Source: a virus (lineage: Duplodnaviria; Caudoviricetes). Taken from it: 64,000 nucleotides of DNA. This document shows positions 4,677 through 43,480 of this stretch, one piece after another (position 1 is the first letter of the stretch; every line of letters begins with the position of its first letter). The DNA lies in the IMG/VR virus record IMGVR_UViG_3300033070_001288, positions 4,841-68,840 of that record; one strand, written 5' to 3'. The translations under genes and the position numbers were made by a program. Under the pieces are notes generated by a model that searched no databases, was not told the DNA's origin, and saw nothing but the letters and a program-made list of their open reading frames with translations.

Positions 4677-5162
4677 ATGCCCATCAAGAAAGGCGACCTC
4701 GTCCCCAATTTCCCGAACCCCGCGAGGGAGCTGGCGACTTCGTTCCTCGAGGTAGTAGACGTCGCCGCGGCAGACGGCGACTCTATCGTGAAGATGAGGC
4801 AGCGGGTGGAGAAGGTTGCTCCGTCGGTGGAAGGCGGCAACTTCTTGGTACCCGCGTCGATGCTCAGAGACGTCAAGGTCTACCGCCTGATCGACCCGTT
4901 CGCCGACGACGCCGTGCCGGTCGACAGCCTCCGAGAAGACTACGACAGCCTGGGCACGAACCCCCGTGCGTGGGCGCGGGCGATGGCTCAGCAGACGGTA
5001 GAGGGCAGGCTCGACGAAACTACGCTGCTCGGCTGGTGCTCTCGCCTCATCGAGGCTGGAGCAGCGCGCGAGCGTGCTCTGATCCCTCGAATCTCCGCTC
5101 CGCCGAAGAAGCCGCGTCCTCCCTCTGCTCGCCCCCTGCGCACGAGGTCGGTGAAGAAGTGA
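4677..5162 (+). CDS. hypothetical protein
   Basis: Starts 1 nt after the portal stop; phage-like codon usage. Confidence 0.7.
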   Translation: MPIKKGDLVPNFPNPARELATSFLEVVDVAAADGDSIVKMRQRVEKVAPSVEGGNFLVPASMLRDVKVYRLIDPFADDAVPVDSLREDYDSLGTNPRAWARAMAQQTVEGRLDETTLLGWCSRLIEAGAARERALIPRISAPPKKPRPPSARPLRTRSVKK

Positions 5163-11214: not shown

Positions 11215-14200
11215 ATGCGCATCGACCGAGTATACACCACCTCCGTATCCGACCCCTACGACCTCATCGAGTGGACGCGAACCGACAGCGAGATTCGCAA
11301 CCCCGACGGCGGCGTCGTCTTCTCGCTCAGAGACATCGAAGTTCCCAAGGGCTGGAGCAAGGTCGCGGCCGACGTGCTCGCGCAGAAGTACTTCCGCAAG
11401 GCCGGTGTCCCTGCGATTACGCGCCGCGTTCCCGAAGACGGCGTCCCCAACTGGCTGCAGAGGTCGGTTGGAGTTGAGGTCGCGGCGGTAGGCTCCGAGA
11501 CGAGCGCCAAGCAAGTCTTCGACCGCCTCGCTGGCGCCTGGACCTACTGGGGCTGGAAGATGGGCGTGTTCGACCCGTCTGCAGACCAGCTGGCGGGGGT
11601 AGTCGTCGACCCCCGGGCCATCGCGTTCTCCAATGCGCGCGCCTACTTCGACGAGATGCGCTACATGCTCGCCGCTCAGATCGCGGCCCCCAACTCTCCG
11701 CAGTGGTTCAACACCGGCCTGCACTGGGCCTACGGCATCGACGGCCCGTCGCAGGGTCACTACTACTACGACACCGTCGTCGGCGAAGTCGTCGAGTCTA
11801 AGTCGTCCTACGAGCGCCCGCAGCCCCACGCCTGCTTCATCCAGTCGGTGGCCGACGACCTCGTCAACGACGGCGGCATCATGGACCTGTGGACCCGCGA
11901 GGCGCGGCTGTTCAAGTACGGCTCGGGCTGCCTGTCGGGTGACGCAGACGTCGTTACCGCTACGGGTATCGTAAATCTGCGTTCTCTGTGGCGTCGGGCG
12001 AGGAAAGAGGGCCTGACACCGCAAGAATTTGACGGTGCCGGCAGGTATATTGATGTCGCCCACTGGGGCGTTAAGGTTGCTTCGTTGTGCACTCGTACGG
12101 GTTCGTACAGGTTCGCTCCCTTGGATAAGGTATGGTCGTATCGAGTACCGAAGGAAGACAAGGTCTGCGTGACCTTCGATACGGGTGCAAAAGTAACCAC
12201 CAGTGCTTGGCATCCGTTTATGAAGTGGAACGGTGAAGCCATCGTAGAGTGTCGCGCAGACACTCTAGTTCGTGGTGATGCCGTAGCCGGACCGAATACG
12301 TCTTTGCTAGATACGCTACCGAAGAAAAACCACTCCATAGATGTAACGTCTAGATACTTTGGTAGTCGGGAGACGCAGACGATTGCCGTAGATGCAGACG
12401 TTGCCTGGCTTATAGGGTACTTCTTCGGTAACGGCAATCTGGGTAAGACGGGAAAATCTCTTCGGTACGGTACCACCAGATACCGCGTACGTTTTTCCGA
12501 TCACCATCGAGAGCCACTAGACAAGATCGTCGGAATTATCGACTCGCTATTCGGCGAGAAAGGCACCGTCAAAAAATCCAAGCGCGCCGACATGTACGGC
12601 GTAAGTTTTACCGGACGATGGACGACACGCCTGTTTCGAACTCTGTCTCGGGCAGGAAGCAAGACGTATACGATGAAGGTTCCAAACTTCGTCTACTTTC
12701 TGCACGATGACGTATACGCCGCGTTCATCGCGGGCCTAGCCGACTCTGACGGTTCAGTATCAGGGGGTCGAATCCACTACCATACAGCGTCACCGAAGTT
12801 CCTTTCCGCGCTGGCCGGTATCTGCAGTGTTCGCGGACACGGCGGCAGTTCTACTCGGCGCAGCGTATGCCTAGTCAGACGTTCCTATAACGGTCCCCTG
12901 CGGGAAGCTATTGTTGCAAACATGGCAACTCCCCGCCACGTAGAAGCGATGAGAACCCCTAGTCGCAGGCAGTGGACTCTCCCACTAACAGGTGCGATGA
13001 GAGAAGCCATTATAGACCAACAAGAAGACTATCTGCATAACAGTGTAGACGGAGAACTAATTCATACGGGACGCCTCCGCTATGATAGCGTCGTAAACTC
13101 TTGCAAAGTTTCTGCACTCGCTACGCTGCTGCGTCCGAAAGACTCTGCTCTACTTCAGAACGTGGCGTCGGGTGCTGCATTCGTCACCGACGTAGCTTCT
13201 CTAGATTCTGACGTAGACTTCTACGATCTTACCGTAGGGGGAGATAACAATTATCTCGCCGGAGAAAACGGGTTCGTCACTGTCCATAATACCGGCACCA
13301 ACTTCTCGGCCGTTCGCGGCGAGAACGAGAAGCTGTCTGGCGGCGGCAAGTCGTCGGGCCTAATGTCGTTCCTGAAGATCGGCGACGCGTCGGCGGGCGC
13401 CATCAAGTCGGGCGGCACGACTCGCCGCGCTGCCAAGATGGTCGTCCTCGACGTAGACCACCCCGACGTGGTCGAGTTCGTTCAGTGGAAGTCGCGCGAA
13501 GAAGACAAGGTCGCGGCGCTCGTGACGGGTTCGAAGGTCGTCAAGAAGCACGTTCGGTCGATCATGCGCGCCTGCATCAACTGCGAGGGCGAAGGCGACT
13601 CGTGCTTCGACCCGAAGAAGAACCCGGCTCTGCACAAAGAGATTCGCCTGGCGCGACGCGCTTCGGTGCCCGACTCTTATATCCACCGAACCGTCCAGCT
13701 GGCTCGTCAGGGCATCAGCGAAATCGACTTCGACGAGTTCTCCCTCGACTGGGGCTCCGAGGCCTACACGACCGTCTCGGGCCAGAACTCGAACAACTCG
13801 GTCCGCGTGAGCGACGCCTTCATGGAGGCCGTGAACCTCGACACCGAGTGGAAGCTCAAGGCGCGTCTCACCGGCGAGACGATGCGCGTCGTGTCGTCTC
13901 GCGACCTGTGGGACAAGATCGGCTACGCGGCGTGGTCATCCGCAGACCCCGGCGTCCAGTACGACACGACGATCAACGACTGGCACACGTGCTCCGTCGA
14001 CGGTCGCATCAACGCGTCGAATCCGTGCTGCTTCGTAGCAGGCACTTTCGTAGACACGAGCGAAGGCCTCATCGACATCGCAGAGCTTACGCGAATGAAG
14101 CGTAGGGGAGAGACTTTGCCCCTTGCTTTTAGCTACGATTTCGACAAAGGCGGTCCCGTTCTTCGCCAGATAAATAACGCTTGGAAAGCCGGCGTCACAC

Positions 14201-15882
14201 GTAACCTCGTGGAAGTAAGAACAGAAAAAGGTCAACGTATTCGCTGCACCCCCGAGCACGTATGGTACCTGCGAGACGGAACAGAGGTACAAGCCAAAGA
14301 TTTGCAACCAGGTATGAGCCTAAGAAAGATCAAGAGGGGTGCCAATCCTCACCGTTCTGGAAGAATCTCTATCCTGTCGTTTCCCGATTCCCGAAGCGAG
14401 CGCGGTCGTTGCAGCCAAGCTCGATGGATGTGGAAACAAGTATTCGGCGATATACCGGAAGGCTTCGAGGTTCACCATAGAAACGAAGACCCTACCGACG
14501 ACAGAATCAGCAACTTCAAGCTAGTCGAGGGCCGGCGCCATCGCAGGTTCCATGCTCGAGGTCTACGCAATCCTCGAGCAATAGACGTATCCAGCGAGGT
14601 ACTAGTCGAAGTTTTCGACACGATAGCTTCGCAGGATCGCAAAACACACAAGCGGCGCGATGGAGTTTCCCCTGCGATGTGGAACTCTTACATTCGTCGA
14701 AACAACCTTCGCGGAAAGGTGCCTATGGCAGCGTCGCCGACGCTGGGTGGACGTATTCGAGGAATGAAATGGGATGCGTTCGTGTCTCAGATGGAAGAAG
14801 CGCGCTACGACGTAAATGATCGCGTCAAGCGTGTTAAGAATATAGTGCTCGACTCTGCTGTTCCTGTATACGACATAGAAGTCGAAGGAACACATAACTT
14901 CGGCATTCGAGACGATCAGGACGGCAGCAAATCTTCTCTGATCGTATCGAACAGCGAGTACATGTTCCTCGACGACACGGCCTGCAACCTGGCGTCGCTG
15001 AACCTCAAGAAATTCGGCGGCGTCGCCGACTTCGACGTGGATCGCTTCAGGCACGCCGTTCGCCTGTGGACCATCACCCTCGAAATCTCGGTGGAGATGG
15101 CTCAGTTCCCGTCGCGCGAGATCGCTCTGCGCTCGTACAAGTACCGCACGCTCGGCCTCGGCTACGCGAACGTCGGCGGCATGCTCATGTCGAGCGGCGT
15201 GGGATACGACTCGCGCACCGGCCGCGCCACCATCGGGGCCATCACCGCGATCATGACGGGTGAGGCATACGCGACCTCGGCGCGCATGGCGGAGCAGCTC
15301 GGGCCGTTCGTTCGCTACGAGGCCAACAAAGACTCGATGGAGCGAGTGATCCGCAACCACCGAGCGGCGGCTCAGGGCACCTTCTACTCGAAGCTGTCTA
15401 TCGAGCCTCCCAAGCTCGACCACTATGCCTGCTCTCCTGTTCTCGCGAAGGCGGCGCGCGACGTGTGGGACGATGCCATCAATCTCGGCACCGCTCACGG
15501 ATACCGCAACGCACAGGTGTCGTGCATCGCCCCTACGGGATGTACGCTTTCTACTACGCGTATTCGTACCGAAGATGGTATCAAGTCTTACCGTGAAATT
15601 TTAGAAGAGAACGATATAGACTGGAAGGAAATCGAAAAAGGTAACGACCAACGTTGGATTCCACTGAAGCCTTTCTGGCTTCCGTCACAAGATGGGCATC
15701 GAGACTATGCCGATAAAATATGGTACAACGGTATCCAAGAAACCTACGTCGTCACTTTTGAAGACGGAACAGAATTTGAGTGTACTGGCAACCACAAATT
15801 GTTGGTACGCTTGAGCAACAGCGAAACTGCCTGGATCGAGGCTCAATACCTCAATGGGGATGAAGAGGTATTATCTTCATAA
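11215..15882 (+). CDS. nrdJ: class II (AdoCbl-dependent) ribonucleotide reductase, N-terminal fragment with two cis inteins and a terminal split-intein N-half
   Basis: VLAQKYFRKAGVP, APNSPQWFNTGL, PQPHACFIQSV, RRAAKMV, INASNPC/SEYMFLDDTACNLAS, RTLGLGYAN, SCIAPTG; AGGAG RBS. Confidence 0.95.
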   Translation: MRIDRVYTTSVSDPYDLIEWTRTDSEIRNPDGGVVFSLRDIEVPKGWSKVAADVLAQKYFRKAGVPAITRRVPEDGVPNWLQRSVGVEVAAVGSETSAKQVFDRLAGAWTYWGWKMGVFDPSADQLAGVVVDPRAIAFSNARAYFDEMRYMLAAQIAAPNSPQWFNTGLHWAYGIDGPSQGHYYYDTVVGEVVESKSSYERPQPHACFIQSVADDLVNDGGIMDLWTREARLFKYGSGCLSGDADVVTATGIVNLRSLWRRARKEGLTPQEFDGAGRYIDVAHWGVKVASLCTRTGSYRFAPLDKVWSYRVPKEDKVCVTFDTGAKVTTSAWHPFMKWNGEAIVECRADTLVRGDAVAGPNTSLLDTLPKKNHSIDVTSRYFGSRETQTIAVDADVAWLIGYFFGNGNLGKTGKSLRYGTTRYRVRFSDHHREPLDKIVGIIDSLFGEKGTVKKSKRADMYGVSFTGRWTTRLFRTLSRAGSKTYTMKVPNFVYFLHDDVYAAFIAGLADSDGSVSGGRIHYHTASPKFLSALAGICSVRGHGGSSTRRSVCLVRRSYNGPLREAIVANMATPRHVEAMRTPSRRQWTLPLTGAMREAIIDQQEDYLHNSVDGELIHTGRLRYDSVVNSCKVSALATLLRPKDSALLQNVASGAAFVTDVASLDSDVDFYDLTVGGDNNYLAGENGFVTVHNTGTNFSAVRGENEKLSGGGKSSGLMSFLKIGDASAGAIKSGGTTRRAAKMVVLDVDHPDVVEFVQWKSREEDKVAALVTGSKVVKKHVRSIMRACINCEGEGDSCFDPKKNPALHKEIRLARRASVPDSYIHRTVQLARQGISEIDFDEFSLDWGSEAYTTVSGQNSNNSVRVSDAFMEAVNLDTEWKLKARLTGETMRVVSSRDLWDKIGYAAWSSADPGVQYDTTINDWHTCSVDGRINASNPCCFVAGTFVDTSEGLIDIAELTRMKRRGETLPLAFSYDFDKGGPVLRQINNAWKAGVTRNLVEVRTEKGQRIRCTPEHVWYLRDGTEVQAKDLQPGMSLRKIKRGANPHRSGRISILSFPDSRSERGRCSQARWMWKQVFGDIPEGFEVHHRNEDPTDDRISNFKLVEGRRHRRFHARGLRNPRAIDVSSEVLVEVFDTIASQDRKTHKRRDGVSPAMWNSYIRRNNLRGKVPMAASPTLGGRIRGMKWDAFVSQMEEARYDVNDRVKRVKNIVLDSAVPVYDIEVEGTHNFGIRDDQDGSKSSLIVSNSEYMFLDDTACNLASLNLKKFGGVADFDVDRFRHAVRLWTITLEISVEMAQFPSREIALRSYKYRTLGLGYANVGGMLMSSGVGYDSRTGRATIGAITAIMTGEAYATSARMAEQLGPFVRYEANKDSMERVIRNHRAAAQGTFYSKLSIEPPKLDHYACSPVLAKAARDVWDDAINLGTAHGYRNAQVSCIAPTGCTLSTTRIRTEDGIKSYREILEENDIDWKEIEKGNDQRWIPLKPFWLPSQDGHRDYADKIWYNGIQETYVVTFEDGTEFECTGNHKLLVRLSNSETAWIEAQYLNGDEEVLSS
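11929..13290 (+). mobile_element. intein 1 (454 aa, LAGLIDADG endonuclease) at KYGSG|TGTNFS
   Basis: Begins CLSGDADV and ends FYDLTV..VTVHN with Thr+1. LAGLIDADG motifs LIGYFFGNG and FIAGLADSDG; AT-richer than exteins. Confidence 0.93.
14029..14952 (+). mobile_element. intein 2 (308 aa, HNH endonuclease) at NPC|SEY
   Basis: Begins CFVAGTFV; block B CTPEH; HNH motif EVHHRNEDPTDDRISNFKLV..HRRFH; ends VYDIEV..LIVSN with Ser+1. Confidence 0.92.
15541..15879 (+). mobile_element. split intein N-half (113 aa) after IAPTG
   Basis: Starts CTLSTTRIRT and has block B FECTGNHKLLV. Ends at stop 15880-82 without blocks F/G. Confidence 0.9.
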
Positions 15883-15888
15883 GTCTTG

Positions 15889-15940
15889 GGAATAGCTCCT
15901 AGCTACTAACCAATTTTATACGTTAGCTAGGAGCTATTCC
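15889..15940 (+). promoter_or_regulatory. RBS-sequestering hairpin with candidate late promoter in its loop
   Basis: Perfect 17-bp arms GGAATAGCTCCTAGCTA (15889-15905) and TAGCTAGGAGCTATTCC (15924-15940). The right arm holds AGGAG and abuts the ATG at 15941; the loop contains CCAATTTT. Confidence 0.8.
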
Positions 15941-17197
15941 ATGTCCATACCTGTGGTAAACTTTGTAAGAGGGAGAACTCACCTACATCGCTATCTAGAG
16001 AAGCAGTCACTTCCTAAGATAGTACGCGATGTTCGCAAATTAAAGAATGAAGACTGGGAAAAGATATTTAGCAGCAGCTATGATCCAGATGTGCCAGTTA
16101 AGGTATACCGGACGGCTATCTACCTTTGGGCAAAGCGACGATTATCTCCAAAGACGATACTTAGATATTACAGAGGACTGATAAGTCGTAGTCATTTTTC
16201 AACTTCTCAAATAGAAATGTGGCTGGATAGTCCTAATGCGAGTCCTAGGGTACCTGATTTTTATAAGAGAAAATATGGTATTCATTGGAAAGCATACTAT
16301 GATATTGCTAGGAAAAAGAGCAATCCCTACAATTTAGAATCGGTAATGAAACGCTACGGACTCAGCAGACGCGAAGCTGAAATCGAAGTAGGACGCAGAA
16401 AGAAAAATACTTCTGGATCGTTTGCATCATTTCTTCGTCGTGCCGGGGGTGACGTTTCGGAGGCTCGAAGAAGGTTTCGCTCCTTCTGCGAGAAGTCTTC
16501 TCATACTGAAGAAAAATTCCGAAAGAGATACGGTAAAAACTATAAGGCAAAGTGGGAAGAGTACAAGAAGAGCAAGAACAGCTATGACTTGGACAAGTAC
16601 GTAGCTAAGTACGGAGAATCTCTGGGCCGCGAAAAATTGCTCGATAGAATAGATCGTAGCGTCGTGGACTATGCCAAGTTCGTGGAAATGTACGGTGAGC
16701 ATAACGCTGAGCGTGAGTATATTAAGTACTGCTATAGAAAAACCAAAAGCTGGAAACGTAAGTCGGGTAGGTGGGGTGCAACCAAAGAGTCGTTGGAGTT
16801 CTTTAAGCCGCTGCTACTCAAACTCGATAGAAGAAACGTTGAATACCGAATAGGAGTTGAGGGTAACCGAGAGTTTATGCTACTAGATAAAGAATCGGGT
16901 AAGGTTAGGTACTACGATTTTTGTATACCCTCTATCAGAGTAGTAGTCGAGTTCGACGGTTTTACGCATCCTAGTCCTTCGTTGTCTGCAAAAAAACTGG
17001 CTAAATGGCGCTGCCACTTTACTGGAGTTTCTGCAGAAACTCGTCTTGCAGATGACGAGGCTAAGAGGCGCGTAGCGGTTTCTAGAGGTTACCTGTTCTT
17101 CCGTTTTCACGCAGATGAGATCAAAAAAGATAGGCGTCGGTATCAGGCTATGCTGTGGAGTGTAATCAATCCCCTGCTTAAGGAGAAGAGAAAATGA
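15941..17197 (+). CDS. free-standing Vsr-like (PD-(D/E)XK-related) homing endonuclease between the split-intein halves
   Basis: Repeated (K/R)YG units, then [44 protein letters not shown]-rich; ATGA overlap with the intein C-half start. Confidence 0.8.
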
Positions 17198-17301
17198 AAA
17201 TAACGTCCGTACGCAAGTCGGGAAGAAGTATGCCCACTTGGGACATTGAAGTTCGGGACAAGCATTGTTATTGGTTGGAGAACGGCGTATTATCGCATAA
17301 T
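17194..17301 (+). mobile_element. split intein C-half (36 aa)
   Basis: [36 protein letters not shown] is basic, with block F Asp, terminal His-Asn and Thr+1. Confidence 0.92.
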
Positions 17302-18771
17302 ACGATCGGCCTCGTCATGGACTGCGACACGACGGGCATCGAGCCCGACTTCGCTCTCGTCAAGCACAAGAGCCTCGTCGGCGGCGGCTTCTTCAAGATC
17401 ATCAACCAGTCGGTGCCCGACGCCCTTCGCGCTCTGGGCTACGGCCAAGACACGATCGACGGGATCACGCGCTACGTGGTCGGGTCGGGCGAGCTTCCCG
17501 CCGATTTCTGGGCCAAGCTCACGTTCGAGGAGAGGCACGCGCTCGAGGCTTCGATCCCGACGGCGTTCTCGATACGCAGCCTGGGCATCAACTGGGAAGA
17601 GCGCGGGTTCACCCCCAAGCAGATCGACGACGCCGACTCGTACTGCTGCGGCCGCATGACCATCGAGGGCGCACCCGGCCTGCGCGAGGAGCACTACTCC
17701 GTGTTCGACTGCGCCAGCCAGTGCGGCAAGTGGGGCACGCGCGTGCTTTCGGTTAACGCTCACCTCATGATGATGTCGGCGGCTCAGCCGTTCGTCTCGG
17801 GAGCTATCTCGAAGACGATCAACATGTCGAACGACTGCACGGTCGCCGACTGCCTCGACGCCTACCGCCTCGCGTGGGGCCTCGGCCTCAAGTCGGTGGC
17901 GCTCTACCGCGACGGGTCGAAGCTGTCCCAGCCGCTCATGTCGCGCCTCGCTGTCGACGCCGACGAGGCCGAAGACATCGTCGAGCTGAACCCCGCCGCG
18001 CGCACCGAGCGCGTGGTGGAGCGCATCGTCGAGCGCATCGTGGCGCGCGACCGCGAGAAGCTGCCCTCCCGCCGCAAGGGCTACACGCAGAAGGCCGTCG
18101 TCGGCGGCCACAAGGTGTACCTGCGCACGGGCGAGTACGAGGACGGGCGCCTCGGCGAGATATTCGTCGACATGCACAAAGAGGGCGCGACGTTCCGCAG
18201 TCTGATGAACTCGTTCGCAATCGCAGTGTCCATCGGCCTGCAGTTCGGCGTGCCGCTAGAAGAGTTCGTAGACGCGTTCACGTTCACGCGCTTCGAACCC
18301 TCGGGGCTGGTTCAGGACAACGACGCTATCAAGAACGCTACGTCGATCCTCGACTACGTGTTCCGCGAACTGGCGATCTCGTACCTCGACCGCACCGACC
18401 TCGCTCACGTGACTCCCTCGGGCAACGGGACCGAGATGGGCGGCGGAGAGTCGGAGGGTCGCCAGCAGGCTCTCGTCTCTCGCGGCCTCCTCCGATCCGC
18501 CGGACCGCTAGCTCTGGCTGCGGAGCTGGCCAAGTCTCTAGAAGGAGCCAGTGTTCCCGTGCGCATGACTGCTGCAGCGACGGGGCTCGGTTCCGTCGGC
18601 GTAATAGCGACGGTCGGAGCCGTCGACGTCGCAGCTCCCAGCCGCGCCGAGGTGGCTCTCATGAAGGGCTACGTCGGAGAGTCGTGCGAGACGTGCGGCA
18701 ACTTCACCCTCGTCCGCAACGGCACGTGTCTCAAGTGCGACTCGTGCGGAAGCACCACCGGCTGCAGCTGA
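17194..18771 (+). CDS. nrdJ: class II RNR C-terminal fragment preceded by split-intein C-half; includes TSCPD-like domain and terminal Zn ribbon
   Basis: HN|[91 protein letters not shown]. Confidence 0.95.
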
Positions 18772-34825: not shown

Positions 34826-37207
34826 GTGATATCTGTTACAGGCGCGTCGAAGTACCTAGAGCACTCCGACGCCGATCCCATGGCAGCAACTCTGGTGGTA
34901 CCCGACAAGCAGGTCGGTGCCGTCATGGTCGTGGGCACGGTAACGACGCGCCTGAACAGGCTGGTACGCGCCATCGAGAAGGTGGAGCGCGAGAACACGC
35001 GCAGGATTCGCAGCGACGCCATGCGCCGTCGCCACGACGAGCGCAGAGCGCGCGCCACCCACGCGAGGCGTGAGGCGCAGGAGCAGCACGAGACGCGGCG
35101 CAGCGCAAGTCGCGGTCGCAGCAGCTCCGTCTTCTCTCCCCGCGCGTCTGCGGGCAAGGCCGGTGGCGCTGGCGGTGGCGGCATCCTTACGTCTATAGGC
35201 GGAGGCGTCGCGGGCGGAGCACTGGCTAGGTTCGGTGGCAAGGCGCTTCCGTTCCTCGGCAAGGCGGCGGGCAAGGCCGCTGCTCCTCTAGCAGCCATAC
35301 TGGGAGGCTACGGCGTCTACTCGTCTGTGAAGAATACGGGCAAAGCCGACATACTAGACGCGATCACCGGTGGTGCGGGAGCTGGCGCCATCGGCGGTGC
35401 TGCCTTCGCCGGCGTGGGCGCAATCCCGGGTGCCGTCATCGGTGGACTGCTCGGCGGCGCAGGCGCGATCATATACAACTCGCGCGAGTCTATAGGCGCA
35501 GCTTACCGCTCTGCCAAGGAGACGGTTACTTCTGCTGCATCAGACGCCGCAGACTACGCCAAGGACAAGTGGAGCTCCGTAACAACCAAGCTGGGCAACA
35601 CGGTAGACTACGCGAAGGAGAAGCTGAACGATGCCTGGGAGAGTGTCAAGGCTACCGCCGGACAGTACCGCGACCAGGTAACCGAGTGGCTCGGCAACCA
35701 GGGCAAGACGCTGCACGAGTGGTTCGACAGCGTAACGGCGGGCCTGCGCAGCGCCGTATCTCTTCAGAGTCTTCGCGCCATGGCTTCCGAGTGGCTAGAG
35801 AGCCTCAAGAGCTGGTTCCGAAACAAGCTGATGGGCGGTTCGGGCGGTGGCGGCGATCCCGCTACGCGAGGAAACGACACTACTAGCCCTACGCCAGGCT
35901 CTTACGGTGGCGGGCCCCCCAACCCGTCTAGCATGTACGCGCCCGGAAGCGGTGGGTACGCAGGCGGCTCCATAGCTACGGGCGGCAAAGCCAACTGGGG
36001 AGCCGAGGGCGGCGTGGCTCGGGGTTTTCAACCGACAACCACGGTAAAGGGCGGAGAGTTCGGATACGCTCCTCAAGGCAGCCAGGGCAAGTTCAGCGCC
36101 GACGGCATTGCAGGCGGCTCTTCGGATATAGGCAATATCGGTCGTAACGGATTTGGACTAGGAGGTCCGCAGGCAGGCGGCGCGAGTCCCATGTCGCGGC
36201 CCGACGCTACGGTTCCCCGACTGGGCGGATCGAGTTCGGGGATGCCCCAGTTCTGGCAGTACGGCGCACGCGTTGCCGCACCCGAGGGGGCTATGGGTAG
36301 TCCGGGTTCGGGAATCGTCTCTGCAACCAACACGGGAGAACGTGCCTACAAGAACCAGGGTTCTCTAGTACTGCGAGACCCCAAGACCGGGGCAGTGCTC
36401 GGATCGTATCCCTACGTTACCGGCGGTGGCGGTAAGGGATCGCTTCCCGAGGGCGAGTACAATATCGGCGACATGATGAGGGGCGGTAGCCTCGGAGATC
36501 GCTGGCGGCTGACGCAGAAGGGTCAGCCCGACGATACGGCGCGAGACCCGGGCATACCCGGAGTAACGGGCGGCAGCCAGCGAAGCGCTTTTCGCATACA
36601 TCAGGCGCACGGGTCGGGGACCCTAGGCTGCATAGGCATCCTGGGCGGCAACGAGGTGTACCAAGACTTCAAGAACAAGCTGATGTACGTTATCGGCGCC
36701 AACGGAGGAAAGGCTTCTCTGCGCATCGGTTCACCAGAAGCGCAGCGCGTTATGCAGAACATGACGCCTGTGCCTCCCGGAGCTTCCCGTCAGACTATCG
36801 AGGGTGTCAAGGATAAGGAACAGCAGGCAACGTCTACGGCCGACCCCGCAGGCTCTACCAAGGCTCCGGGAGCCACCGACCCTGGCTCAGCTACCAGCGC
36901 GACTACTTCTACGACACCCACGACCGACGCGAAGAAGCCTGCTTGGCAGCAGGGCGACTCGAAAGACTACAGCGGGTTCGGCGCGCCTAGGGGCATAAGC
37001 CAGTCGGACAAGGAGCCCGAGGTATCGGCGTCTTCTGTCAAGGAGAAGGAACCCGCCAGCGAAGCTCCCGCAGAGCGCGAGGATACGCCAGACGCATCTG
37101 CGCCCACCGCGTCGGGCATCAAGGGCAAGCGCGTTAGCATAGACGACATACCGACGGTGCACCCCAACGTGCACCTCGCGATGGTCGGAGCGAGTGACAA
37201 AGCGTGA
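34826..37207 (+). CDS. tape-measure-like/hub protein with Tlde1 (DUF2778)-like L,D-peptidase domain
   Basis: Gly/Ala-rich hydrophobic helices and W-spaced repeats, then GSLPEGEYNI..RSAFRIH..GTLGCIGI. Confidence 0.6.
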   Translation: MISVTGASKYLEHSDADPMAATLVVPDKQVGAVMVVGTVTTRLNRLVRAIEKVERENTRRIRSDAMRRRHDERRARATHARREAQEQHETRRSASRGRSSSVFSPRASAGKAGGAGGGGILTSIGGGVAGGALARFGGKALPFLGKAAGKAAAPLAAILGGYGVYSSVKNTGKADILDAITGGAGAGAIGGAAFAGVGAIPGAVIGGLLGGAGAIIYNSRESIGAAYRSAKETVTSAASDAADYAKDKWSSVTTKLGNTVDYAKEKLNDAWESVKATAGQYRDQVTEWLGNQGKTLHEWFDSVTAGLRSAVSLQSLRAMASEWLESLKSWFRNKLMGGSGGGGDPATRGNDTTSPTPGSYGGGPPNPSSMYAPGSGGYAGGSIATGGKANWGAEGGVARGFQPTTTVKGGEFGYAPQGSQGKFSADGIAGGSSDIGNIGRNGFGLGGPQAGGASPMSRPDATVPRLGGSSSGMPQFWQYGARVAAPEGAMGSPGSGIVSATNTGERAYKNQGSLVLRDPKTGAVLGSYPYVTGGGGKGSLPEGEYNIGDMMRGGSLGDRWRLTQKGQPDDTARDPGIPGVTGGSQRSAFRIHQAHGSGTLGCIGILGGNEVYQDFKNKLMYVIGANGGKASLRIGSPEAQRVMQNMTPVPPGASRQTIEGVKDKEQQATSTADPAGSTKAPGATDPGSATSATTSTTPTTDAKKPAWQQGDSKDYSGFGAPRGISQSDKEPEVSASSVKEKEPASEAPAEREDTPDASAPTASGIKGKRVSIDDIPTVHPNVHLAMVGASDKA

Positions 37208-39132
37208 AGAGCAGCGTTACAGACTTCTTCAAGAACACTCTATCTGGCGGCGACGACGCTCGCGCGACAGAGTTTATCGTGCTGGGAGTATCTAAGCGGT
37301 CTACGCTGGGTACGGCGCGACGCACGGTAGACAAGCTGTTCGACCGCCTAGAGAAGTCGGTACTCAAGGCTATAGCCATACCCGCGACGGCCCTTCCTAC
37401 CCCGTCTTACGTTCCTCCGGCACCTCCAGTCAAGTCTTCGGCAGTTCCCGAACCTCGGAGAGCAAGAGGCGGAGGTATGGGAGCCTCTACAGAGGGAGCC
37501 CTGATAGGTTTCGCTCTGGGCGCGGCTTACATGATGCTCCCCAAGTTGGTAGAGGGCGCGTCGGAGGCTGCCAACAGCGTAGTCTCTGCGGCTAAGGATA
37601 AGGCGGGAGAGCTGTTCTCTGCTGCTATAGAGGGTACGCGTAAGGGCCTGACGACCGCAGCTACCTGGATTTCGGAGAGCGCGTCGTCTGTAGCCAAGAC
37701 TGCACGCGAGGGCGCAACCTACGTCGTCGAGAGCGTCAAGTCGGGACTGTCTACGGTAGCCGACGTCGCTAGCAAGTACGCAGACGATGTTTCTGCGCGA
37801 GCGGTTAACCTGTATGACAGCATCAAGAGTTCTGCGGTAGCCCTCGTGAAGACGGCCACGGCTGTTCCTGCAGGTCTGATTCTGCGTTCGCGCGAGGCCG
37901 TGTACTCGCTATGGGAGGGGACTAAGCAGACTGTTCGCAGCTGGCTGTGGGGCATACTCAACGTATTCAATAATTCGGGCCCGCTAGACGGCAGTAGTGG
38001 TAGCGGTAGCGGAAGTGGCGGCGCTAACGGAGGCGGAAGCGGAAACGCCAGCGGAGGCGGGTCTAGAATCGACAGCGGCGGAGGAACTGGCGCAGCCGGC
38101 CGAGCAACTTCTTTTCAGGAAGGCCCTAACGCATCGGGCTGGGACGCTCCCAAGTCTTCTGTGTCGTATCAGTCTTCTCTAGCCGCCACTTCGGGACCGG
38201 GGGCCTGGCGCGGCACGGCAAATTCCAACGTGAACGGCTCGGCGCCTTCTTTCGCGCCCACCGATCAGGTAGACCGCGCGCGAGAGCGCATGGCGTATCT
38301 GATGCAGAAGGGGTACGACGCCAAGACGGCAGGGGCAATCGTAGGCAACGCCTGGCACGAGAGTGCTGGTCTCAATCCGAAGATCAAAGGCGATAACGGA
38401 AATTCGATGGGCGAGTTTCAGTTCAACAACAAGGGAGAGCAGCCCGCCCTAAGAAAGTTCGCAGCGGCTAGGGGTCTCGACGTAAACGACTGGAGGACCC
38501 AGTACGACTTCGTGCATGAACAGCTGCAGGGGCCGTACAGGAAGACTCTGAACAGGATGCAGAGCGCTCAGAGCATCGATGAAGCCACGGTAGCATTTAG
38601 CCGTGGGTACGAGCGACCCCTAGAGTCCGCGGCGTATAACGACCGTCGCATAAAGTGGGCTAAGGTCTCTGCGGGGCTCGTGAACACCGCGCCGCCTCCG
38701 CCAGATTCTAAGACTGCTCCCGGCGGGCCAGCCTCCTCCATAGTCTCTGGTTCGGGTGTCGTGGCGCCAGACGCTATAGGTGCACGCAGGAAAGCGTCAT
38801 TCGGAGACGGCATCGTATCCGATTCGCAGGCCAAGAGGCGGCTTCCCGCAATGTACTCGGGATCGGGCGTACAGGCCCCCGACTCTATAGGTGCGGGAAA
38901 GAAGGGAGACTTCGGCACCGGCATCTCTGACGGGGAGAAAGACGTAAGTCCCGCCAAGCGTTTCGAGACTCGTCCAGACACTCCTACGAAGGAAGGCGGA
39001 GGCGATACTAGCCAGCGCGACGACTCGGGCGAGCAGCAGGATACCGCGATGGACAAGAAGAGGCGTCGAGCCATCATGATGAACAACGACGCGGGGACGT
39101 ACATGATATCCCACCAAGACGCGATGGCGTAG
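37204..39132 (+). CDS. tape-measure-like protein with phage tail lysozyme (Phage_lysozyme2-like) domain
   Basis: AGAIVGNAWHES..GNSMGEFQF..WRTQYDFVHEQL..AFSRGYERP..RRIKWA. Confidence 0.8.
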   Translation: MKSSVTDFFKNTLSGGDDARATEFIVLGVSKRSTLGTARRTVDKLFDRLEKSVLKAIAIPATALPTPSYVPPAPPVKSSAVPEPRRARGGGMGASTEGALIGFALGAAYMMLPKLVEGASEAANSVVSAAKDKAGELFSAAIEGTRKGLTTAATWISESASSVAKTAREGATYVVESVKSGLSTVADVASKYADDVSARAVNLYDSIKSSAVALVKTATAVPAGLILRSREAVYSLWEGTKQTVRSWLWGILNVFNNSGPLDGSSGSGSGSGGANGGGSGNASGGGSRIDSGGGTGAAGRATSFQEGPNASGWDAPKSSVSYQSSLAATSGPGAWRGTANSNVNGSAPSFAPTDQVDRARERMAYLMQKGYDAKTAGAIVGNAWHESAGLNPKIKGDNGNSMGEFQFNNKGEQPALRKFAAARGLDVNDWRTQYDFVHEQLQGPYRKTLNRMQSAQSIDEATVAFSRGYERPLESAAYNDRRIKWAKVSAGLVNTAPPPPDSKTAPGGPASSIVSGSGVVAPDAIGARRKASFGDGIVSDSQAKRRLPAMYSGSGVQAPDSIGAGKKGDFGTGISDGEKDVSPAKRFETRPDTPTKEGGGDTSQRDDSGEQQDTAMDKKRRRAIMMNNDAGTYMISHQDAMA

Positions 39133-39141
39133 GAGGCCTAG

Positions 39142-40038
39142 TTGCCCTCGATCACCAAGAACCCGAATTATACGCGAGGAGAGCACCCGCTTGCCGAGTT
39201 TGGCTCTATAGTCGGAAAAGAGATTCTAGCAGGTGTCTATAAAATATTCTCTCCTAAGGGTTGCTACATAGGATCGACGATAAATCTTCCGCGCAGGCTG
39301 CGGACCCACAACTTCGTTCTTCGCCGCGGGACTCACCACTCTCCTATGCTTCAGAGTGCGTACGATAAGTATGGTGAATTACAGGTAGAGATATTGTTCT
39401 CAGTGTCTCCACGTGTATGCACGAGAGAGTCTCTGCTCAGGAGGGAGCAGAAGTTTCTAGATAGCATTTGCCCCAGGTACAACTGCTCTCTTGAGGCTAA
39501 ATCTCCGGCTAGAGATCCTCGCGTAGGCAACAAGATAAGTAAGGCAAACAAGGGTCGCATAGTTTCGAAAGAAACGCGACAAAAGATATCTGCGGCTAAG
39601 ATGGGTCACACTACGTCTCCGGCAGCTCGAAAGAAGATGAGAGATGCTAAGCTAGGCGTTGCTCTTACAGAAGAGCACAAGCGCGCTTTAAGCGACTCTC
39701 TTCGAGGGAGAAAAGTAAGCAGAGCAACACGAGAGAAAATGAGTCGCAGTCGCATCGGAATAAAATTCTCCTCGGAGACTCGGAAGAAGATAGCTGATTC
39801 CAAGCGAGGAATAAAGACGGGACGTCGCGATCTAGATACACGGTTGCACATGCTCGTCTCCACTTTGGGCGTAAGTGAGAAATTTCTGGCCAGTCAGATA
39901 CGAAAGATACGAAGTAGCCTAGACGTGATGTCTGCTAGAGAAACTTCCGAAGTTTTGGGAATACCTTACAAGAGAGTCTTGCGAGTGTCTCGCAACCACG
40001 AGACGTACTGCTATCTAGAAGGGAAATACCGTGGGTAG
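39142..40038 (+). CDS. GIY-YIG homing endonuclease with NUMOD3 repeats
   Basis: GVYKI..CYIGST..RRLRTH..REQKFLD..YN; repeated xSxETRxKIS units; AGGAGG RBS and TTG start. Confidence 0.9.
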   Translation: MPSITKNPNYTRGEHPLAEFGSIVGKEILAGVYKIFSPKGCYIGSTINLPRRLRTHNFVLRRGTHHSPMLQSAYDKYGELQVEILFSVSPRVCTRESLLRREQKFLDSICPRYNCSLEAKSPARDPRVGNKISKANKGRIVSKETRQKISAAKMGHTTSPAARKKMRDAKLGVALTEEHKRALSDSLRGRKVSRATREKMSRSRIGIKFSSETRKKIADSKRGIKTGRRDLDTRLHMLVSTLGVSEKFLASQIRKIRSSLDVMSARETSEVLGIPYKRVLRVSRNHETYCYLEGKYRG

Positions 40039-40867
40039 CATCACAAAAAACCCGAATTATATAACGCTCATAACGCGCGGCGACGGCCAGCAGATTCAGG
40101 CGAACGCGAGCTCCAAGCTCGGAATCCGCATCGACAACCGCTGGGTCAACATCATGGAGGCCCTCGGCTTCTCCGGCGACGGCGGCACGGAGCTAGGGCG
40201 TATGGCTGCTGCTGCGTTTAACAGCTTCCAGATATTCACGGGCAACAACTTCTTGCCCGAGATAGCCACGTCGCACGTGTGGCGCGGCTCCAACGGCATC
40301 GAGCTGCAACTTAACCTGAGGTTCGACGCGTGGGACGACGCGAGCAAAGACGTAATGCTCCCCGTGCAGCGCCTGATATCGTGGTTCATGCCTACGCGAA
40401 GCGGTATCGGCGGAGCGCTCGGCAACACTATCGTCAACGGTATCAACTCAGGTATTCGCCAGCTAGGCGGGCAGAACGCTCCGCAGATGTCGGGCCAGTT
40501 CTTCTTGAATCCTCCCGGACCTACTCCCTACGACTACATCACGGGAAATACCTCGAAGCTGTTCATGGTCACCCTCGGCAACGTCGTGATTATAGACGAC
40601 TTGATACCCACCACGCTAGAGTGCGAGTTCGAGGAGCGATTCACGAAGTAGGGCATGCCCGTCGCCGCTAACGTCACGGCAGGGTTCATGAGCTACACCG
40701 TTCCCACGGCTGACAAGGTGCTCGGTTGGTTCAACACCCAGCTGGTTACTATATCTCCCAACGCCACGACTAGCCTAGCTCAGGCGCTGGAGAGTGCGGC
40801 GACCAGTCTGGCGAACAGCCTAGGCGCGGCAGGTTCCGGCCTTAACACCGGCGGCGGCGGAAACTAA
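40031..40867 (+). CDS. baseplate/tail-tube junction protein (gp48/gpU-like), interrupted by an in-frame TAG at 40649-40651
   Basis: ..ECEFEERFTK*GMPVAANVTAGF.. continues in frame to 40867; one-domain-like logic spans the stop. Confidence 0.5.
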
Positions 40868-40879
40868 GGAGTAAGTGCG

Positions 40880-41281
40880 TTGAGCATCAGTCCCTCTCCA
40901 GTCGGGTTCTCCCCGCGATACGACATGCAGTCGCTGATGCCCGCGATAGACGTGACGTCGGGTACCGACCAGCTCGTGCGTCCCGGAAAGCGCACCCTCA
41001 TGATCGACGCGCTCGACCAGAAGCTGGTAGACGCGCTGGAGAGCATCAGCTCCTTCAACGAAGTCGTGTGGGCAGGCGTCAAGCTCACCACGCTCTGCTT
41101 TCAGGCGCACGGCACGCCCAACACGAAGTTCTTGGTACTGGCCTTCAACGGCCTGGGGTCCGAGACTGAGCTGCGTCCGGGCATGGTGCTTCGCATACCT
41201 ACGAAGCCTGGCCTCGACGAGGTAATGAAGCGGGCCTACGCCGTCAAGACTAACGGCATCGGCTCCACGGTAATGATCTGA
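40880..41281 (+). CDS. baseplate wedge protein (gp53/LysM-like)
   Basis: LCFQAHGTP..VLAFNGL..ELRPGMVLRIP. Confidence 0.6.
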   Translation: MSISPSPVGFSPRYDMQSLMPAIDVTSGTDQLVRPGKRTLMIDALDQKLVDALESISSFNEVVWAGVKLTTLCFQAHGTPNTKFLVLAFNGLGSETELRPGMVLRIPTKPGLDEVMKRAYAVKTNGIGSTVMI

Positions 41282-41291
41282 GGAGCACTCG

Positions 41292-41426
41292 ATGCTAGAA
41301 ACTGCAGTACACGCCCTCTTCATAATCCTCGCCACCCTAGGTGTCGTCGCGGGCATCGTGGTGGTCGCTGCGGCGGCGGTGTTAATCTATATCGCTATGT
41401 CGTGGATGGACTCGGGTTCTCACTGA
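41292..41426 (+). CDS. small single-TM peptide (44 aa), not in ORF track
   Basis: AGGAG RBS; MLETAVHALFIILATLGVVAGIVVVAAAAVLIYIAMSWMDSGSH; TGATG-coupled to the next HEG. Confidence 0.6.
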   Translation: MLETAVHALFIILATLGVVAGIVVVAAAAVLIYIAMSWMDSGSH

Positions 41427-42250
41427 TGGCGTTCAAGACTAAAGACCTAGCAGAATTTAGCACGATAGGCGTGTATGTAATAAAGTCGCCTGCTTCTTGG
41501 AACTGTTACGTGGGATCTTCTAAATCTTGTCAGTCCCGGATAGCTAGGCACTTCTATATGCTCAGAAGCGGTACCCACCCTAACCACATACTTACTAGGG
41601 CGTATCGTAAATACGGTGAATCACTAGAAGCATACGTGGTGGAAGAGCTGAGCTTACGCAAGTGGCGTAGAGATCCTTCGATGCTGACAGATATAGAAGA
41701 CGAATGGATAGAACTTTTACCCAGTGTCTACAATATTTCTAAGTCGGCCCATTCGCCGTCTGCGGACCATCGTATTCGCGCAAAGATAAGCAGAGCACTC
41801 GCTGGAAGAAAGATGTCAAAGGCTAGGCTCAAGGTCCATATCGAGGCAATGAGAAGGCCCGACGTTAACGATAAGCGCCGCAAGAAGATGAAGAATCGGC
41901 CGCTATCGGACCGTGCGAAGAAGCAGCATAGGGCTATGGTTGACAGTGATTGGTGGAGGAAAAGAGTTAGCGCGGGACGTAGAAAGAATATGAAAGAAGT
42001 ATCTAGCGAAACGTGTGCTAAGATATCGGCATCTCTGACGGGTCGCCGCCTGTCAGACTCTCACCGGGAAAACATCAGTGTGGGACATACAGGGCTGGTC
42101 AAGTTGACCAACGCGCAAGTTCGCCTAATAAGGCGACAGCACGACCCTCGTTGCGCTACGCAGAGCTACCGCAATCTAGGCGACAAATTCGGAGTGTCGT
42201 GGTTGACAGTTTTTAAGGTCGTTAAGAATGTTGGAGCTTACGCATCATGA
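41426..42250 (+). CDS. GIY-YIG homing endonuclease with NUMOD3-like repeats and C-terminal HTH
   Basis: GVYVI..CYVGSS..RIARH..EDEWIE..YN; KISASLTGRRLSDSHR; terminal LTNAQVRLIR..LGDKFGVS. Confidence 0.88.
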   Translation: MAFKTKDLAEFSTIGVYVIKSPASWNCYVGSSKSCQSRIARHFYMLRSGTHPNHILTRAYRKYGESLEAYVVEELSLRKWRRDPSMLTDIEDEWIELLPSVYNISKSAHSPSADHRIRAKISRALAGRKMSKARLKVHIEAMRRPDVNDKRRKKMKNRPLSDRAKKQHRAMVDSDWWRKRVSAGRRKNMKEVSSETCAKISASLTGRRLSDSHRENISVGHTGLVKLTNAQVRLIRRQHDPRCATQSYRNLGDKFGVSWLTVFKVVKNVGAYAS

Positions 42251-43392
42251 GCTTCCGAACCAAAGACCTTGCAGAGTTCGGCCTCAAGGTAAACGGCGTC
42301 GACATGATGATCGGTGCCGACATGCTCAAGGACGTGTCGGTGATACAGAACGTGCACTCGCCCGTTCCGACCGTTACCATGACCTTCCTAGACAACAAGC
42401 GCGCGGCTCAGAGCGCGGGAGTGTTCGTAGACGGCGCCAAGCTGGAGGTCACGATAGGCGACGGTAAGAAAGACCCGTCCGTCTACAAGATGCGCCAGTG
42501 GTCGCTCGAAGACGCTGCGGCCAACACGGCAGGCGACGTCTGCACCATATCGGGCACCGCCGATCTGATACCCTGGTTCCGCAAGGTGGTCGACAAGGCG
42601 TACAAGGGAACGTCTACCGAAGTCGCTCAGAAGCTGGCGAAGGACAACGGCGTCGAGAAGGTAGACGCCGAGTCGTCGAACGACAAGATGGTGCACCTGC
42701 CCGACGGGTCTACGGTGAGCCAGTTCCTGCGGCGCATCATAGACCACTCCTGGGTGGCCGAGGGAGCTTCTCTGTTCGCCGCCATGACGTACAGCGGCAA
42801 CGACGTCATGCTCCGCATAAAGGACATCATGAAGCAGAGCGACGGCGCGAGCAAGAGGCTGGTGTCGGCGGGGCTGGCGAAGCCCGACGATCTCACGGTC
42901 TGGGACTACCGCATCAGCTCGCACACGGGTTTCCTCAACGCGCTCACCAACTACGGACACAAGGCAGTTCAAGAGAAGCTGGGGTCGAGCGCCCCCGACA
43001 TCTTCACGTCGATGGCGATCAACAAGCTGGCGTCGTCGCTGGGTATCAACGCCGACGTAGCGAAGGCCGTCAACCTGGTTCGCACGCTGTACCACCCGCC
43101 AGACGTCGGCAACACCCACAAGGACTGGGTTAAGGCGGCGCACCACAACGTCAAGAGCCGCGCGGCATTCTCCGCGGTAGTGTCGGTCATGACCGACGTA
43201 CTCACCGAGTACAAGCTGCTCGACACGGCCGAAGCTGAGCTGGCACGATCCAACGGCGAACCCGACGCCGCCTTCTCGGGAAAGTACAAGGTCACCGCGA
43301 TAGCTCGGCACATATCTAAGGGGTCGTACCGCGAGAAGCTGATCCTGACGGGTCAGGGAACCAACGCCGACCTCTTTAAGCAGGGGACGTAG
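42247..43392 (+). CDS. baseplate hub protein (gp27/gpD-like)
   Basis: 381 aa, immediately before a gp5-like gene; SEVA.KLA..NG..VDA..SND..HLP, QFLRRI pattern. Confidence 0.6.
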   Translation: MSFRTKDLAEFGLKVNGVDMMIGADMLKDVSVIQNVHSPVPTVTMTFLDNKRAAQSAGVFVDGAKLEVTIGDGKKDPSVYKMRQWSLEDAAANTAGDVCTISGTADLIPWFRKVVDKAYKGTSTEVAQKLAKDNGVEKVDAESSNDKMVHLPDGSTVSQFLRRIIDHSWVAEGASLFAAMTYSGNDVMLRIKDIMKQSDGASKRLVSAGLAKPDDLTVWDYRISSHTGFLNALTNYGHKAVQEKLGSSAPDIFTSMAINKLASSLGINADVAKAVNLVRTLYHPPDVGNTHKDWVKAAHHNVKSRAAFSAVVSVMTDVLTEYKLLDTAEAELARSNGEPDAAFSGKYKVTAIARHISKGSYREKLILTGQGTNADLFKQGT

Positions 43393-43393
43393 C

Positions 43394-43480
43394 ATGAGAC
43401 GAGTTCGAGTAGACGTAGCGGCTCTGCTGCGCGGAGTTCCCGCCGCAGACCTTCCCTGGATCACGGTAGTGAGGAAGTAG
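43394..43480 (+). pseudogene. 28-aa mini-ORF resembling a gp5 OB-fold fragment
   Basis: RVRVDVAALLRGVPAADLPW versus RIKVRIHDLHDNVKDEDLPW in the next gene. Confidence 0.4.

Follow-up and report, generated by a model that had tools for sequence, protein, structure and literature searches.

The window analyzed here is a stretch of 64,000 nucleotides from a Caudoviricetes virus (IMG/VR record IMGVR_UViG_3300033070_001288, positions 4,841 to 68,840). Its source is a 68.8-kb IMG/VR viral contig with an estimated completeness of ~28% and a GC content of 61%. It contains two homing endonuclease genes (HEGs), HEG1 and HEG2, in a myovirus-type tail/baseplate module. Each is fused in frame to the start of a structural gene and is followed by a second copy of that start. 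Both are very probably intron-less homing cassettes that rescue the tail/baseplate gene they interrupt, ~10 to 12 codons inside it. Coordinates are those of the window, and the annotated features of both sites lie on the + strand.

Endonuclease genes and duplicated gene starts

HEG1 (39142 to 40038) is a free-standing open reading frame (ORF) of 298 amino acids that encodes a homing endonuclease with GIY-YIG and NUMOD3 domains (Pfam). Its GC content is 0.49, and its GC content at third codon positions (GC3) is 0.50. It begins TTG CCC TCG ATC ACC AAG AAC CCG AAT TAT, 9 nt past the stop of a gene with a lysozyme domain. The ribosome-binding site (RBS), TAGGAGG at 39130 to 39136, overlaps that upstream stop. 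It is the native RBS of the interrupted gene and would now serve HEG1; its sequence and spacing are the same in L003, a relative without the HEGs. The left copy of the duplicated start (39142 to 39171) consists of the native TTG and codons 2 to 10 (MPSITKNPNY), in frame with HEG1, and matches the native start in L003. Four of the five HEG1 alleles contain no other in-frame ATG, GTG, or TTG before the GIY motif, so the captured start is the only plausible one.

The right copy (40031 to 40060) was read from the sequence as a replacement GTG and codons 2 to 10 (MGSITKNPNY). Here the PmgG-like gene restarts with GTG GGT AGC ATC ACA AAA AAC CCG AAT TAT. The HEG1 stop TAG (40036 to 40038) lies inside restart codons 2 and 3, giving the overlap GTGGGTAG. 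A Shine-Dalgarno-like motif, GAAGGGA (40018 to 40024), lies inside the 3' coding end of HEG1, 6 nt upstream of the restart GTG, and may act as an element-borne signal. The b alleles carry GAGGAG there.

Both copies encode the octapeptide SITKNPNY with only synonymous differences (TCG/AGC, ACC/ACA, and AAG/AAA). Codons 4 to 10 contain only two of these, and residue 2 is not identical (P in the left copy and G in the right). The sequence-only reading had described a HEG that opens with MPSITKNPNY behind a strong RBS, a downstream gene that opens with MGSITKNPNY and overlaps the HEG stop, and synonymous differences between them; all three descriptions agree with the positions above. It had also set GC3-rich codons in the left copy against AT-rich ones in the right. 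That contrast is real but small (six of eight codons end in G or C in the left copy, compared with four of eight in the right). The strong contrast is between the HEG body and its flanking genes. The HEG1 body has a GC3 of 0.50, compared with 0.65 for the lysozyme-domain gene upstream and 0.78 for the gene that HEG1 interrupts. Both HEGs have a GC3 of 0.50 to 0.52, and the genes around HEG2 have 0.83 to 0.84. The composition of the HEGs is foreign relative to the flanking genes.

The same layout was found at a second site ~2 kb away, in a hub gene. HEG2 (41426 to 42250) encodes a GIY-YIG endonuclease of 274 amino acids with a GC content of 0.49, and it is a paralogue of HEG1 (Pfam and BLAST against HEG1). 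Its left copy (41426 to 41458) contains ATG and 10 codons (MAFKTKDLAEF) in frame with HEG2 and is homologous to the hub start. The right copy (42247 to 42279) is the hub start itself, MSFRTKDLAEF. Its ATG overlaps the HEG2 stop (ATGA), and it lies inside a tract that is near-identical between the relatives L004 and L001. The hub gene of L003 (MSFHTKDTAEF) is uninterrupted and directly follows a 133-amino-acid gene with the same ATGA overlap. A hydrophobic ORF of 44 amino acids (MLETAVHALFIILATLGVVAGIVVV...; 41292 to 41427) lies between the 133-amino-acid gene and HEG2, with its TGA overlapping the ATG of HEG2. L004, L011, and L012 have this ORF; L001 and L003 do not.

The assignment of HEG1 to the GIY-YIG endonucleases, made earlier from the sequence, holds at the profile level. 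HEG1 matched GIY-YIG (PF01541) with 25.7 bits (cut-off, 22.6) and NUMOD3 with 32.9 bits (cut-off, 20.4). HEG2 matched PF01541 with 27.0 bits (cut-off, 22.6). HEG2 has no NUMOD3 match of its own in Pfam, though it aligns with HEG1 over the whole length (34% identity, E = 9e-27). Residues 15 to 98 of HEG2 align with residues 4 to 82 of I-TevI, the catalytic domain (E = 8.5e-8). This alignment begins directly past the captured tag, and in HEG2 the 11-residue tag and 3 further residues appear to stand in for the usual short N terminus. A sequence search of the PDB with HEG1 gave no match. HEG1 has 30 residues before the GIY motif and HEG2 has 14; more distant homologues (≤37% identity) mostly have 0 to 14. 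By eye, every allele has the GIY, YIG, Arg, Glu, and Asn positions of the motif. P0052 (L013) is a GIY-YIG homologue with a long N-terminal extension, and its downstream gene contains no clear repeat of the N terminus.

The gene interrupted by HEG1 (40031 to 40867) encodes a PmgG-like tail/baseplate-module protein (PHROG 1114) of 277 to 278 amino acids in relatives. It has ~30 metagenome homologues, all of which open with M-x-S-[LIV]-[TS]-x-N-x-N-Y; the N terminus is therefore the host family's own. The gene interrupted by HEG2 (42247 to 43392) encodes a baseplate-hub-like protein of 381 amino acids (tblastn; PHROG 25710). Its tblastn matches include phiRSL1, BcepSauron, and others, and one of these is annotated as a "putative baseplate hub." Only the hub protein reaches phage records, and these are distant jumbo phages with ~20 to 25% identity. 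At both sites, the duplicated N terminus is that of the host protein family. The earlier name "baseplate gene" is reasonable for the HEG1 host from its position and weak homology, but it is unproven for the 277-amino-acid protein.

Empty sites, alleles, and exchange tracts

All relatives were obtained by exact-protein look-ups. A blastn search with 38500 to 43400 and a tblastn search with the interrupted gene gave no match in 50,697 phage records. A protein-pattern scan of IMG/VR with the interrupted protein retrieved no relative. The left-junction pattern ATATCCCACCAAGANGCNNTNGCNTAGGAG had 0 matches in viral and metagenome contigs.

L003 contains neither endonuclease gene, and its copy of the interrupted protein is 88% identical at the amino acid level. 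Its gene begins TTG CCC TCT ATC ACC AAG AAC TCT AAC TAC ATA ACG. This start stands directly behind ...GCTTAGGAGGCCTAG, after the lysozyme-domain gene, with TAGGAGGCCTAG before the TTG as in the window. The native start thus lies in the same context, which places the insertion after codon 10 and identifies the left copy as the native one. Insertion about 10 codons into the gene, with takeover of its RBS and start, had been proposed from the window, together with the prediction that a HEG-less relative would carry the left-copy version directly after the lysozyme gene. L003 has that arrangement. The HEG-less gene order also occurs in the more distant L006/L007, L008/L009, and L010. No HEG-less relative has a 5' end that matches neither copy. 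The site 1 repeat is not a chance match, because HEG-less relatives begin the gene with these 10 codons and the N terminus is found family-wide.

HEG1 orthologues were found at the same site in L001, L004, L005/L012, and L011. All contain exactly 298 amino acids, and all are tagged. Endonucleases that start with SITKN were found only as these four orthologues at this site and not elsewhere, which also accords with the capture proposed earlier. Although identity among the alleles is 63 to 88%, the in-frame fusion is kept, and ORF length is exactly 298 amino acids in five HEG1 loci and 274 in four HEG2 loci. The HEGs are polymorphic for presence and absence among close relatives, with L003 empty at both sites. 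The right copies of all HEG1-bearing loci have a constant GTG GGT AGY, including two HEG1 alleles that are ~63% identical.

A different GIY-YIG gene (MGCFIYSIVRKG...; L012, 1401 to 1839) without a captured tag occupies the HEG2 left-copy start position in L012. The L012 contig terminates before the hub gene. An unrelated, untagged gene of this kind at the same position marks the site as an insertion hot spot.

The mosaic analysis used sliding identity over an alignment of the loci. The window, L011, and L004 have structural genes that are ~97% identical, yet they carry two HEG1 alleles and three HEG2 alleles. The window and L011 have the same HEG1, and the HEG1 of L004 is only ~63% identical to it. 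The three HEG2 alleles are that of the window, that of L011 (~70% identical to the window's), and one common to L004 and L001.

Two exchange tracts were recovered from this comparison. The window and L011 have a single difference across 39025 to 40128, at base 39157 (K-to-E in the left copy). This tract also takes in the right copy. Upstream of 39025, the lysozyme-domain genes are ~50% diverged; downstream of the tract, the loci are ~3% diverged. The recombination boundary between the window and L011 is ~120 bp upstream of HEG1. L004 and L001 have two differences across the equivalent of 41450 to 42290, within flanks that are ~20% diverged. This tract spans left-copy codon 9 to hub codon 14. 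It holds the HEG body, the stop/start overlap, and the whole right copy; the replacement 5' end is therefore part of the mobile cassette. HEG and right copy have been exchanged together recently. L004 kept a left-copy-type start (MAFK...CTA) identical to that of the window, so the recipient already had a cassette and the event was an allele-for-allele replacement.

The module begins with a tape-measure-like gene (34826 to 37207). It is followed by a second tape-measure-like gene with a phage tail lysozyme domain (37204 to 39132; PF18013, 8.6e-26; PHROG tape-measure matches), which is the gene upstream of HEG1. The 3' end of this gene is the left homology arm. Its C-terminal third (38200 to 39024) is only ~45% identical between the window and L011, whose version is closer to that of L001. 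The interrupted 277-amino-acid-type gene comes next, followed by the 133-amino-acid gene, the 381-amino-acid hub-like gene, a gp5/V-like spike gene, and genes for gp25-like and gpJ-like wedge proteins.

Homing model and alternatives

We propose the following model for both cassettes. At the left junction, the HEG is fused to the host RBS, start, and first codons; its translation, and presumably its timing, would be that of a late structural gene. The right end of the cassette supplies the displaced codons a second time, preceded by a Shine-Dalgarno-like motif and opening with a new start whose overlap with the HEG stop is GTGGGTAG at site 1 and ATGA at site 2. The host protein would be remade at full length, probably by translational coupling at the stop/start overlap with help from the Shine-Dalgarno-like motif. 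The endonuclease would be expected to cut alleles that have no cassette or a rival cassette. Repair by recombination with a co-infecting donor would then copy the HEG and the replacement 5' end as one unit. The rebuilt allele may be immune to cleavage.

I-TevI cleaves 23 to 25 nt upstream of its insertion site. If the HEGs act like I-TevI, they would cut in codons 1 to 3 and the RBS region, where the copies differ, and this analogy offers a lead to the target.

The sequence-only reading had also proposed that the cassette rebuilt a recoded 5' end. The rebuilt end is borne out by the right copy, which travels with the HEG in the exchange tracts. The recoding is concentrated in codons 1 to 3, and the sign of selection is weak. 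The constant differences between the right copy and the native or left copy are the upstream context, the start codon (GTG compared with TTG or ATG), codons 2 and 3 (GGT AGY compared with CCC TCN), and one wobble position. The other right-copy codons track the resident backbone, and the right copy of L004 is a mosaic from about codon 6. Codons 2 and 3 (GGT AGY) also supply the HEG1 stop TAG. The right copy may be a foreign allele shaped by the needs of the overlap rather than by a selected resistance change.

Several observations weigh against the homing model as stated. The left copy of L005 reads TTG GGT AGC; given this allele and the few constant differences, the case for a selected, cleavage-resistant recoding is weak. 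The PmgG-like gene of the window is split by an in-frame TAG (40649 to 40651) into ORFs at 40031 to 40651 and 40655 to 40867 (206 and 70 amino acids). L001, L003, L004, L011, and a 99%-identical 278-amino-acid protein have GAG (Glu) at this codon. The same sequences have TGG (Trp) at 40622 to 40624, where the window has TGC. The gene in the window contig is either a defective variant or the product of a sequencing or assembly error. The earlier statement that the gene is kept intact holds for the HEG-bearing L001, L004, and L011, in which the host proteins are full length; it may not hold for the window copy. Finally, the exchanges in L004 look as if one HEG allele displaced another, and ordinary recombination during co-infection, without the endonuclease, could suffice for them.

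The duplication could be a passive scar, left by illegitimate or microhomology-mediated entry or made when the HEG later copied its neighbor's start. The right copy would then come from a diverged donor, with no selected recoding and no role in immunity, and both the target and self-protection would lie elsewhere. T4 Seg enzymes can cut well away from their own gene. The left copy of L005 suggests that Gly-Ser (AGC) may be a natural allele, and distant members of the PmgG family also start with MGS or MGA. The near-identity of codons 4 to 10 and the mosaic right copy in L004 fit a scar as well. It accounts less readily for GTG GGT AGY, which is constant in every right copy across the two diverged HEG1 alleles, although the surrounding codons vary, and which gives rise to both the stop TAG and its overlap with the start. 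The architecture, moreover, arose at two sites. We consider a passive scar doubtful but a serious possibility. It is very unlikely that the cassettes are fixed relics, with endonucleases that have died or been domesticated (e.g., as regulators or in phage competition) and a mosaic produced by general phage recombination only. Every observed swap does fit recombination between two HEG-bearing parents, and promoter and terminator scans were at chance level, with neither HEG having its own promoter above chance. Against this, the ORF lengths are exactly conserved, the motif positions noted above are present in all alleles, and the HEGs are polymorphic for presence among close relatives. Their exchange tracts are tightly centered on the HEGs, one of them near-identical inside 20%-diverged flanks, and the same spot holds several alleles as well as the unrelated GIY-YIG gene in L012.

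Phages have many intron-encoded GIY-YIG enzymes, and source annotations name some homologues "group I intron endonuclease." We nevertheless give almost no credence to a self-splicing group I intron or an intein, with the repeat as exon or extein context. No Rfam match was found in 38800 to 42600 at E values up to 1, and Pfam detected no intein domain in the HEG1 ORF. The ORF fills the insert from edge to edge. Under splicing, the host gene would need neither a restart codon of its own nor a complete second set of the displaced codons, and it has both.

A rather speculative extension of the homing model, which we hold to be somewhat improbable, joins competition between alleles with a switch of target. 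The sites would be arenas for rival endonuclease alleles. Each would come with a 5' replacement end of its own and would cleave genomes in which a competing cassette sits, so that alleles replace one another in series. Such competition would explain ~97% identical backbones with HEG alleles that are only 63 to 80% identical. HEG1 would descend from a hub-site element that switched its target, and its N terminus would be a stacked record of insertion sites, with LAEFG behind the newer tag. The sequence LAEFG in the HEG1 linker (residues 17 to 21; 39190 to 39204) equals hub residues 8 to 12 and aligns with the HEG2 tag (BLAST). Shuffling gave a p of ~0.005 for the window and L001 alleles and no signal for the L004 and L005 alleles. 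LAEFG may be left over from a capture that took place earlier at the hub site.

The two copies often agree at codon 8. The window has P/P (L/L at site 2), and L001 has A/A (T/T at site 2). L005 has V/S, and site 2 of L004 has L/T. Concerted evolution of the two copies by gene conversion was rejected, as these last two mismatches break the pattern. Crossovers at the inner repeat edges in swaps between HEG-bearing genomes account better for most of the codon 8 identity, but not for the origin of A/A.

Comparison with known elements and implications

Group I intron-encoded endonucleases differ from HEG1 and HEG2 in that a ribozyme core flanks the ORF, and Rfam detected none around these genes. 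The closest layout described is that of the mobile endonuclease ORFs (mORFs) of fungal mitochondria, which form gene hybrids in Allomyces macrogynus (atp6), Glomus sp. (atp6, atp9, cox2, and nad3), and Rhizopus oryzae (atp9), as well as in Mortierella verticillata (cox2) (PMC3630166). There, a LAGLIDADG or GIY-YIG ORF without an intron carries in a foreign, diverged duplicate of the gene's C-terminal end, often in phase (PMC3630166). The phage cassettes are like mORFs in that an endonuclease ORF lies inside a coding region without an intron or intein and a duplicate gene end keeps the host protein intact. The mORFs replace the 3' end, with the inserted copy upstream of the ORF and the native end stranded downstream, whereas the phage HEGs duplicate the 5' end. 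The native translation start has also passed to the HEG in the phage, and the host gene begins anew at an element-borne start overlapping the HEG stop. The invaded DNA is a structural operon of a phage rather than mitochondrial DNA. The phage cassettes are a variant of the mORF kind and not members of it, as the 3' end is not what they replace.

HEG1 and HEG2 are like the T4 Seg proteins and I-TevI in having a GIY-YIG domain and, in HEG1, NUMOD3-type DNA-binding repeats (PMC2988022; PDB 1mk0 and 1ln0). They also lie, as those do, at the boundaries of exchanged DNA, and they would resemble them in homing without an intron and in carrying flanking markers along by co-conversion. The T4 Seg and Mob genes lie between genes or split a gene into two polypeptides, as mobE does in nrdA and mobA in gene 39/60 (PMC2988022). 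Unlike HEG1 and HEG2, they are not described in the T4 review with a duplicated gene start or a translational fusion to a host start (PMC2988022). A study of ICP1 nucleases at exchange boundaries describes no such layout (PMC10448857).

The WHO elements of Torulaspora and Lachancea yeasts are homing elements that target an essential gene and carry a resistant replacement part. They are eukaryotic and nuclear, belong to a different endonuclease family, and replace the 3' part of FBA1.

The window also contains a class II (B12-dependent) ribonucleotide reductase gene (11215 to 18771) with two inteins, one LAGLIDADG and one HNH. It is split at 15882/17194, with an ORF of 418 amino acids and 43% GC (15941 to 17197) between the halves. 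A C-intein-like ...VLSHNT opens the second half, and the arrangement is that of a "fractured gene" (PMC2677866).

No phage paper on a duplicated gene start at a HEG was found in the literature searched, where absence is not proof. The 5' version is apparently undescribed for phages in searchable papers, and the 3' version is known from fungal mitochondria. HEG1 and HEG2 show a route by which a free-standing homing endonuclease, with neither intron nor intein, can enter the coding sequence of an essential structural gene in a phage. The nuclease appropriates the translation signals of the gene and supplies it with a spare start, in effect a natural "cut and rescue" drive. The empty site, the two HEG1 and three HEG2 alleles, and the near-identical transfer between 20%-diverged backbones resolve the extent of the mobile unit to a few codons. 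The same relatives are ready substrates for cleavage and homing experiments. For annotation, an unusual N-terminal extension on a HEG ORF may be a sign of this layout, as may a GTG or overlapping start in the structural gene that comes next.

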